Shown here piece by piece: positions 18,794 to 19,815 of a stretch of 64,000 bases of DNA. Every line of letters begins with the position of its first letter. Within the stretch, counting starts at the first letter, position 1. Origin of the DNA: a virus (Duplodnaviria > Caudoviricetes); the IMG/VR virus record IMGVR_UViG_3300034012_000625, positions 1,259 through 65,258 of that record. One strand, written 5' to 3'. The notes beneath the pieces are model-generated. The model searched no databases, was not told the origin of the DNA, and saw only the letters and a program-made list of their open reading frames with translations. Both the position numbers and the translations under genes were made by a program.

Positions 18794-19669
18794 ATGAAAC
18801 TTACCAACAAACACGGTCTGCCACAGACCTTTATCAATGTCATTCAGCGGCCTACTTATAGCAGAGGTAGCTCAGAGATCAGCGTCACTGAGATCCTGTC
18901 GCCACCGCAGCTAGTACAACTACGCCGCCGTCATGCAGATGATATCGAAGTCGACGCGGCAGATCAGGTCTGGAGTCTGTTCGGCTCCGCAGTCCACAAC
19001 ATATTGCAGCACGGCCAAGACGAGAACCACGTTGTCGAGGAGCGCCTGTTCACCACGTTTGATAGCTGGAGTATCTCTGGTGCTATCGACTTGCAGACCT
19101 TTCAGTCTGACGGCTCTGTTGTCATCTCTGACTACAAGGTGACATCTGCCTGGGCAGTCCAGCAGCAGAAGACCGAGTGGGTGGATCAGCTGAACCTGTA
19201 CGCATGGCTAGTCGAGCGCGTGAAAGCGCATCCGGTTACTGGCCTACAGATCATCGGCATCGTTCGGGATTGGAGCCGCAGAGAAGCTGCCCTGAAGGAC
19301 ACCTACCCGCAAGCGCCTATCGTTACGCTGGATATCCCGCTGTGGGATTCAGAGACACGCGAGCAGTTTGTGCGTGACCGACTGCGCCTGCACAACGAGG
19401 CTAACTTCGCGGCCGTCTCTGGCCAGATGCCAACCTGCACGTCAGAGGAAATGTGGGAGAAGCCAACCACGTTTGCCATCATGAAGGCCGGTGGTGTTCG
19501 TGCGAAGAAGGTCTGTGCCACGCAGGAAGAAGCAGACGCATTGATTAAGACTAAGTTCCCCGGCCATGAGGTCGAGGTTAGAGAGGGCGGCAGGACACGC
19601 TGTGAGTCTTTCTGTCAGGTCGCACCATTTTGTGAGCAGTACAAACTTTACCAACAGGAGAAGTCATGA
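18794..19669 (+). CDS. PD-(D/E)XK recombination exonuclease (Cas4-like Cys cluster)
   Basis: 'GSAVH', 'ISGAID...ISDYK', 'QLNLY', C-terminal RCESFCQVAPFCEQY; upstream of ERF. Confidence 0.8.
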   Translation: MKLTNKHGLPQTFINVIQRPTYSRGSSEISVTEILSPPQLVQLRRRHADDIEVDAADQVWSLFGSAVHNILQHGQDENHVVEERLFTTFDSWSISGAIDLQTFQSDGSVVISDYKVTSAWAVQQQKTEWVDQLNLYAWLVERVKAHPVTGLQIIGIVRDWSRREAALKDTYPQAPIVTLDIPLWDSETREQFVRDRLRLHNEANFAAVSGQMPTCTSEEMWEKPTTFAIMKAGGVRAKKVCATQEEADALIKTKFPGHEVEVREGGRTRCESFCQVAPFCEQYKLYQQEKS

Positions 19670-19815
19670 AATATCTCGTCGCTATCTGGGCTATCGCTTC
19701 CGCATCCATGGCCTACGCCAGCTGCACATCACACAATTTCTGTGACACCCGTGGCAACTGCACGTTCTGCACTACTTGCTGCTATGGCGGTGTGTGCAAC
19801 ACCACCTGCAACTAG
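19666..19815 (+). CDS. Secreted 8-cysteine micropeptide (49 aa)
   Basis: MKYLVAIWAIASASMAYA|SCTSHNFCDTRGNCTFCTTCCYGGVCNTTCN*; AGGAG RBS; ATGA overlap with the exonuclease stop. Confidence 0.75.
   Translation: MKYLVAIWAIASASMAYASCTSHNFCDTRGNCTFCTTCCYGGVCNTTCN

Follow-up and report, generated by a model that had tools for sequence, protein, structure and literature searches.

The 64-kb window analysed here (64,000 nucleotides; all positions below are those of the window) was taken from the IMG/VR virus record IMGVR_UViG_3300034012_000625 (Duplodnaviria; Caudoviricetes), a 65,258-bp record with direct terminal repeats that is rated 100% complete. It contains, at 19666..19815 of the plus strand, a 49-codon open reading frame (ORF) with the product MKYLVAIWAIASASMAYASCTSHNFCDTRGNCTFCTTCCYGGVCNTTCN, and our results indicate that this ORF is a conserved gene whose product is very probably an exported mini-protein stapled by disulfides. 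Taken together, the data favour, with a probability of roughly 0.55, an early accessory phage peptide that is exported to the envelope of the infected cell and acts there as a disulfide-stapled binder.

The 49-codon gene and its export signal

A search with the peptide led to eight protein clusters and to 18 IMG/VR loci. By our own translation, the open 49-codon frame is kept in 18/18 of these loci, and so is a GGAG upstream of its start (18/18). Codons were compared between the window and these loci, that is, 19 loci with 17 distinct DNA sequences. Of 49 columns, 26, 24 and 43 vary at the first, second and third codon positions, respectively, and the median pairwise ratio of non-synonymous to synonymous substitution rates (dN/dS) is 0.15 over 133 pairs. 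The corresponding ratio for polymorphisms (pN/pS) averages 0.28 in the signal part and 0.26 in the mature part (codons 19-49), compared with 1.49 and 1.16 when frames +1 and +2 are read on the identical alignment. Since variation falls mostly on third positions, dN/dS is low, the frame and its GGAG are kept and the other frames give values above 1, these comparisons indicate that the 49-codon ORF is a real, conserved coding gene under purifying selection. The case illustrates how standard ORF cut-offs hide conserved phage genes.

The gene had been singled out by a sequence-only reading as a 49-residue ORF with a ribosome-binding site, an ATGA overlap and a signal peptide ending in AYA, and each of these elements was confirmed in the sequence. 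The ribosome-binding site, AGGAG (19656..19660, +; read from the sequence), stands 5 nt upstream of the ATG. The ATG at 19666 shares ATGA with the TGA stop of an exonuclease gene, and the TAG stop (19813..19815, +) lies 8 nt upstream of the start of erf.

Although the order exonuclease, peptide, erf and homologue of ORF 20422-20796 is identical in 18/18 loci, peptide identity does not follow flank identity among them. In L002 the peptide is 90% identical to that of the window, with only 58% identity for the exonuclease and 65% for Erf, whereas in L005 the peptide is 84% identical and both flanks 98%. The peptide genes of L005 and the window differ by 8 non-synonymous and 10 synonymous changes. 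Positive selection in L005 was considered and rejected, as these counts give no clear signal of it; the difference looks like exchange or recombination, or ordinary divergence. A 1,279-base contig from a related phage (record 3 of run X18) matches the exonuclease gene and erf, and carries 99 unlike letters in place of window positions 19728-19822 (95 bases, most of the mature peptide), in agreement with the pattern seen in the loci. It seems that the coding sequence of the mature part is swapped, or diverges, as one block.

The first 18 codons (MKYLVAIWAIASASMAYA; 19666..19719, +) have the features of a signal peptide, that is, K2, hydrophobic residues from 3 to 15 and A16-Y17-A18, an A-x-A motif for signal peptidase I. 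Small residues occupy position -3 in 131 of 135 family members (A in 102, V in 21, otherwise T, S or G) and position -1 in as many (A in 126, otherwise G, S or T). The basic n-region, the hydrophobic h-region and the small -3 and -1 residues expected for the Sec system and signal peptidase I are thus all found, and the signal peptide claimed earlier is best described as a Sec-type signal with A/V-x-A. We infer that the precursor is exported by Sec and cut after AYA, which would make the first cysteine residue +2 of a mature 31-residue peptide (SCTSHNFCDTRGNCTFCTTCCYGGVCNTTCN; 19720..19812, +) with eight cysteines and a predicted three-stranded beta-meander.

A different destination would follow if the peptide were attached to the membrane, either as a lipoprotein modified at Cys20 or as an uncleaved signal-anchored micro-protein, in the manner of T5 Llp and Cor-type or Imm-type proteins. 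The lipobox consensus for signal peptidase II is [LVI][ASTVI][GAS]-C at the cleavage site. In the clade of the window the cysteine follows A-[SGT], so that Y-A-S-C makes a poor lipobox, with Y or W at -3. A likeness to the NCBIfam model NF050142 was found in 13/23 members, at sub-threshold level (best E 0.011, score 16.4, cut-off 50 bits), and LPAM_1 was matched, also below threshold, in 8/135 members; the NCBIfam search gave no family for the peptide beyond this likeness of its N-terminus to a lipoprotein signal. The N-terminus is, moreover, strongly conserved in the close clade, where M1, K2, Y3, L4, A6 and W8 are invariant. However, among 127 representatives the residue between A-x-A and the first cysteine may be A, S, N, G, D, E, K, R, Q, Y or V, and in some of them two or three residues stand in this place instead of one. 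Because the residue before the first cysteine varies so widely, and is often N, D, E, K, R, Q or Y, the family has no lipobox. A-x-A itself is kept in 131/135 members. Lipidation of C20 would also leave an odd number of cysteines, whereas their counts are always even and the first is lost only together with the third. Membrane attachment is, on this evidence, very improbable.

Cysteines and predicted fold

The eight cysteines claimed for the 31-residue mature part were confirmed in the translation, and they occupy precursor positions 20, 26, 32, 35, 38, 39, 44 and 48. In a census of 285 family sequences, the six canonical cysteines (C1 to C6) are present in 276. These complete members have six cysteines (242/276) or eight (34/276) and never an odd number (0/276), and in the 34 eight-cysteine members the two additional residues are always placed at C-x5-C-x4/5-C, on either side of the first turn. 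The commonest spacing of the six core cysteines is 13-2-0-4-3, with a first gap of 13-14. Going by these counts, six cysteines are the common form and the window peptide is an eight-cysteine variant. Nine sequences lack a canonical cysteine: two are cut by the end of the locus, five look truncated or degenerate and two (P0058 and P0132) look intact. The latter have four cysteines and have lost C1 together with C3, the first cysteine of the CC pair, which may represent a single event.

AlphaFold modelled the full precursor from 23 sequences as a signal helix followed by three strands, with a mean confidence (predicted local distance difference test, pLDDT) of 69.8. For the mature part, AlphaFold2 with a 123-sequence alignment obtained from the loci reached a pLDDT of 93.3 (88-93 over five models). 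In this model the strands run over residues 2-8, 14-22 and 25-30, the first turn has five residues and the second two, and helices are absent. The strand register sets C1 opposite C3, C2 opposite C6 and C4 opposite C5. The gain and loss of cysteines in pairs and the predicted register point to the disulfides C20-C38, C35-C48 and C39-C44, plus C26-C32 for the extra pair, which would make up a ladder, each face of the sheet carrying two of the bonds.

Structure searches gave no close relative. Foldseek returned nothing at E<=0.001 when the full-length model was compared with the PDB, and in the VIA wide structure search the best Z was 3.3 for the full-length model and 3.6 for the mature one, with generic sheet pieces as the only matches. 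The matches of the mature model have root mean square deviations of 1.1-1.5 A over 30-31 residues and are pieces of larger proteins; no knottin, defensin or small disulfide-rich protein is found among the 50 best.

The sequence-only reading had proposed a four-disulfide mini-protein of knottin or defensin type. Knottins are peptides of about 30 residues, secreted and very stable, in which C-C-CC-C-C is the usual framework and the knot pairs C1-C4, C2-C5 and C3-C6. The size of the peptide fits, and so does the order of its cysteines, which is C-C-CC-C-C in 242/276 complete members. Nevertheless, the spacing of 13-14, 2, 0, 4 and 3 is its own, the joint loss of C1 and C3 and the paired extra cysteines point, if indirectly, to C1-C3, C2-C6 and C4-C5 rather than to a knot, and the mature model is a regular beta-meander with strands of 7-9 residues. 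Sequence searches agree, as no consistent Pfam family was found among the 135 members and the profile matched no PDB sequence at E<=1. A defensin is further opposed by the lack of a helix in the model, by a CC pair that is central and not terminal and by a net charge between -1 and +1 in 127/135 members. The four disulfides of the original proposal are well supported by the paired cysteines and the confident model, but homology to true knottins (inhibitor cystine knots) or defensins is quite improbable.

A high content of cysteine and threonine, as in C-T-T-C-C, could also be expected from the precursor of a modified peptide (a lanthipeptide, sactipeptide or azole-type member of the ribosomally synthesised and post-translationally modified peptides, RiPPs) or from a thiolate metal binder. 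The leader is, however, a Sec signal with A-x-A and not a RiPP leader. Known modifying enzymes are encoded by 0/135 neighbouring ORFs, and radical SAM and YcaO genes were not found in the complete phage genome by searches whose controls were positive. In addition, the cysteines are gained and lost in pairs that stand opposite each other in a confident beta-sheet model, and neither His nor Met is conserved anywhere in the 135 members. Paired cysteines in an exported peptide make the metal binder suggested earlier unlikely, and taken together these two alternatives are hardly credible.

Threonine abounds on the surface of the peptide; of 135 members, 80 keep T21, 109 keep T37 and 114 keep T46. 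A canonical protease-inhibitor loop was looked for and set aside as not universal: a basic residue follows the glycine of the turn in 102/135 members and is missing from some eight-cysteine forms.

Disulfide-rich mini-proteins of about 30 residues are classic in animals, plants and fungi, and rare in bacteria. As far as our searches reach, phage-encoded ones are undescribed: literature searches turned up no report of a comparable cysteine-rich peptide secreted from a phage gene, though a survey of small phage genes may list the family. Hepcidin, tachyplesins and protegrins are tiny animal beta-sheets with consecutive cross-strand disulfides and are mostly strongly cationic. The phage family differs from them in its near-neutral charge and its three strands, and it has no sequence relation in the PDB. 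Among bacteria, the best-known Sec-exported micro-peptides are those of the heat-stable enterotoxin type, whose three disulfides are formed in the periplasm. These have a pro-region and another cysteine pattern and are not beta-sheets, and no homology to them was found in the Pfam or NCBIfam searches.

Family, carriers and operon setting

When a profile built from 23 sequences was run against 1.84 billion representative proteins, 154 matches were obtained at E<=1e-3, nearly all of 45-60 residues. They share a varied signal peptide followed by x-C-T-x-x-T ... [ND]-G-[RK] ... C-T-T-C-C ... C-x-T-x-C, usually with one last residue. The ten family clusters that were inspected are nameless or called 'hypothetical protein'. 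A 438-residue member of one 90% cluster (P0163) looks unrelated and was dropped.

Further members were sought by a scan with a degenerate DNA motif for C-T-T-C-C-x4-C-x-T-x-C, whose matches were then scored with the family profile. The viral collection, which is much smaller than the cellular set, yielded at least 120 stretches, and 119 of the 120 candidates among the matches listed are family members by the profile. In 596 Gb of bacterial and archaeal genomes the motif occurs in 86 stretches, and strong family members were found at only 8 loci of 97 cellular candidates. Judging by the titles of the metagenome-assembled genomes (MAGs), these loci belong to Burkholderiales/Burkholderiaceae (three), Methylophilaceae, 'Psychromonas', Nitrospira, an alphaproteobacterium and a Propionibacteriaceae bin. 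No match at E<=1e-6 was obtained in another 400 genomes from the class to which the Methylophilaceae MAG belongs, with at most 17 candidates scored per genome.

Curated libraries and deposited phages gave no relative. Pfam and PHROGs had nothing for the peptide at E<=1, 0 PADLOC families matched it and the ESM Atlas returned only two clusters, unnamed and with a score of 0.87, and no usable named cluster. By the large terminase (48-57% identity), the nearest deposited phages are DSL-LC04, 023Pt_psg01, Pelagibacter phage HTVC027P and Synechococcus phage MinM2; the family profile, which detects the single copy in the window, found a member in 0/4 of them. Against 50,697 GenBank phage records, neither a megablast of 19400-20100 nor a tblastn of the window peptide and P0014 (a weak search, with the low-complexity filter on) gave a match, and no cultured carrier was found by the latter or by the profile in the four nearest relatives. 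On these counts, we are dealing with a large unnamed family that is found almost only in phage genomes. The earlier description of the peptide as unusual for a phage is right for the literature and the curated libraries, but not for uncultured phages, in which the family is common (154 clusters and at least 119 viral members).

Some cellular loci show peculiarities of their own. One contig of the Methylophilaceae MAG (G001 contig C10) has two family members about 9 kb apart, and a regulator with helix-turn-helix (HTH) and WYL(-WCX) domains adjoins the peptide gene in three MAG loci of Burkholderiales and Methylophilaceae (L040, L057 and L083). Clusters of cysteine-rich frames, for example with repeated G-x-C-T-T-C-C-I-I-N-R-C-W-T-P-C units, have weak profile scores (E about 4e-4). 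A Sphingobacteriales MAG (L029/L030) has motif matches at 5001-5042, 5203-5244, 6679-6720 and 7273-7314 of L029, and Dolichospermum L096 has three. Such clusters may represent a separate tandem family of cysteine-rich peptides.

In the window, the peptide gene lies between the genes of a PD-(D/E)XK exonuclease (18794..19669, +, in an ORF from 18761; Pfam PDDEXK_1, E 3.2e-7; PHROG exonuclease phrog_2139, E 4.7e-44) and of an Erf-family single-strand annealing protein (19824..20525, +; Pfam ERF, E 2.8e-24; phrog_2324, E 2.6e-41). The next gene after the peptide is thus erf, with its ATG at 19824, and the Pfam and PHROGs matches of both flanks bear out the place first proposed for the peptide. 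A sigma-70-like promoter candidate, TTGACA-17-TACTAT (18741..18769, +), with a 10/12 match to the consensus, precedes the exonuclease, peptide and erf genes. In a consensus-only promoter scan there was nothing promoter-like between the exonuclease gene and erf, and no convincing terminator-like site. Since a promoter-like site is found before the exonuclease gene and none between it and erf, the peptide gene looks like the second gene of an early operon.

The presence of the gene was surveyed in the 80 best Erf relatives of the viral collection. Among the 23 that are near full length, 18 have a peptide gene upstream of erf, and in the other five (L232, L235, L238, L240 and L251) the gene is absent and the exonuclease gene runs directly into erf, the stop of the one overlapping the start of the other. 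Only 3/57 of the more distant relatives have a family member within 2.5 kb. The arrangement of the window, with a similar exonuclease upstream and erf downstream, is seen in only 2/127 member loci, and the others have different backbones. Of the 135 flanking ORFs examined in other phages, 70 had a PHROG match, and 49 of these 70 belong to replication or recombination: 14 SSB, 11 primosomal or O-like initiators, 6 RusA, 3 NinB, 3 Erf/Sak, 3 exonucleases, 3 endonuclease VII-like proteins, 2 HNH, 2 HTH DNA-binding proteins, 1 polymerase and 1 nucleotidyltransferase. The remaining matches are 3 terminase subunits, 2 endolysins, 1 MazG, 1 kinase-like protein and 14 proteins of unknown function; six further downstream neighbours resemble the small terminase just below the Pfam cut-off. 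No recurrent modifying enzyme, transporter or immunity-like partner was found among the 135 flanking ORFs. Such a distribution indicates that the peptide gene is an accessory, single-gene cassette of phage early regions.

At three loci (L106:4143-5057, L145:4064-4933 and L148:991-1860) the peptide gene abuts the gene of a protein of about 290-305 residues that belongs to phrog_27714, a PHROG of unknown function, and has no Pfam family. The two genes overlap by 8 nt in one locus and are 14-15 nt apart in the other two. The phrog_27714 protein could be a partner of the peptide in that subgroup.

Possible role and further features of the phage

We propose that the peptide gene is transcribed, and probably translationally coupled, with the exonuclease gene and erf, and that its product has no enzyme partner of its own. 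The Sec system of the host would export the precursor and signal peptidase I would cut it after A-Y-A. In a Gram-negative periplasm, the 31-residue product would then be oxidised by the Dsb system of the host into a rigid, flat, three-stranded antiparallel beta-sheet, stapled by the cross-strand bonds C20-C38, C35-C48 and C39-C44, with C26-C32 closing the first hairpin in the eight-cysteine variant. Such a peptide, small and resistant to proteases, would act by stoichiometric binding within the envelope of the infected cell.

A binder of the envelope is favoured because the envelope of the infected cell is also where the known small, soluble, periplasmic early proteins of phages have their effect. 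In T4, the early protein Spackle resides in the periplasm and blocks the lysozyme (gp5) of incoming tails (PMC7677548). It resembles the product proposed here in being an early phage product with a signal peptide, small, soluble, periplasmic and tightly binding, with no enzymatic partner. The two have no sequence relation, since PHROGs had no match for the peptide. Spackle is also about three times longer, and it is helical. T5 Llp and the Cor-type proteins are small exclusion lipoproteins (PMC9586334). They too are small exported early phage proteins, and they protect the surface of the infected cell, but they are lipid-anchored and bind an outer-membrane receptor, whereas the peptides described here have no lipobox and are half their size. 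Searches of PHROGs, Pfam, NCBIfam and PADLOC revealed no homology to Spackle, Llp or Cor.

By analogy with these systems, the likeliest use would be to block an envelope step needed by later phages, a form of superinfection exclusion that is soluble and periplasmic like that of T4 Spackle. We put this assignment forward only tentatively. A less likely use would be the inhibition of a periplasmic enzyme of the host or of a phage.

The peptide might instead act outside the producer, released by lysis or by leakage, either to signal from one infected cell to another or as a bacteriocin-like toxin that harms competing bacteria and grazers. Being small, very stable and rich in disulfides, it resembles many toxins and pheromones that work outside cells. 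The signal peptide and the lack of a partner gene would suit such a role, and the conservation of the family on many unrelated backbones is in keeping with a diffusible product of broad use. On the other hand, the near-neutral charge is not that of a cationic, membrane-active peptide, the 135 flanking ORFs include no immunity, receptor or processing gene, and the gene belongs to an early operon and not to a late or lysis operon. In addition, a 3-kDa peptide should not pass an intact outer membrane. We consider an extracellular role unlikely.

Several points weigh against the envelope binder that we prefer. A periplasm with Dsb is assumed from the Gram-negative hosts of the nearest cultured relatives and from MAG labels that are mostly proteobacterial, and one carrier locus was binned with a Propionibacteriaceae MAG, that is, a monoderm. 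The disulfide map is deduced from covariation and from the predicted strand register. The signal is unusually conserved, with a pN/pS like that of the mature part, and the N-terminus could do more than direct export. Finally, diversification is frequent among exclusion factors engaged in an arms race, yet this family is under purifying selection and keeps its threonine-rich surface; this speaks for a target that is itself conserved, and less for a phage-specific one or a rapid arms race.

It is conceivable, if speculative, that these peptides represent a hitherto unrecognised class of periplasmic effector in uncultured aquatic phages, a disulfide-laddered 'staple' of about 30 residues that travels as a single-gene cassette between early operons and disables a conserved machine of the envelope. 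It might act, for instance, by pairing its edge strand with a periplasmic or outer-membrane protein used in DNA entry or energy transduction. If so, a synthesisable peptide would provide soluble, broad-range superinfection exclusion or a takeover of the host. Should its target be a conserved part of the envelope, the family would also provide a new type of effector in phages and a very stable, ready-made scaffold for the Gram-negative periplasm.

The DNA of the phage recurs in lake-water metagenomes dated 2020-2025, with 17 runs containing at least half of the sampled words, and some of these may be its own source sample. Three metagenome runs labelled RNA-Seq are probably DNA, represented by contigs only, and are uninformative on transcription. 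The GC content of the phage is 52-55%. No tRNA genes were found in the window, which encodes a portal protein, the large and small terminase subunits, a primase, a helicase, a methyltransferase, a ParB-like protein and tail proteins.

Three other regions of the window drew our attention. A ten-kilobase cluster of sugar-nucleotide and glycosyltransferase (GT) genes at 22844-32693 (+) encodes two phrog_1574/GT2-like proteins, a GT10 fucosyltransferase-like protein, a GDP-mannose 4,6-dehydratase and two more epimerase/dehydratase proteins, together with one GT2, a DegT-type aminotransferase and a three-domain thiamine-pyrophosphate enzyme; it could modify a surface glycan of the host or a component of the phage. 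For an ORF of 2,036 residues at 33263-39376 (-), the sole matches are to PHROGs of unknown function (phrog_18222, E 1e-157). The ORF adjoins a homologue of DNA-ejection proteins (40791-41831) and a 1,021-residue ORF with no family, and these are probably internal virion or ejection proteins. Lastly, two adjacent 564-residue paralogues lie at 51445-53142 and 53155-54852 (-), both of them matching phrog_2295 and, more weakly, tail-fibre-assembly proteins.

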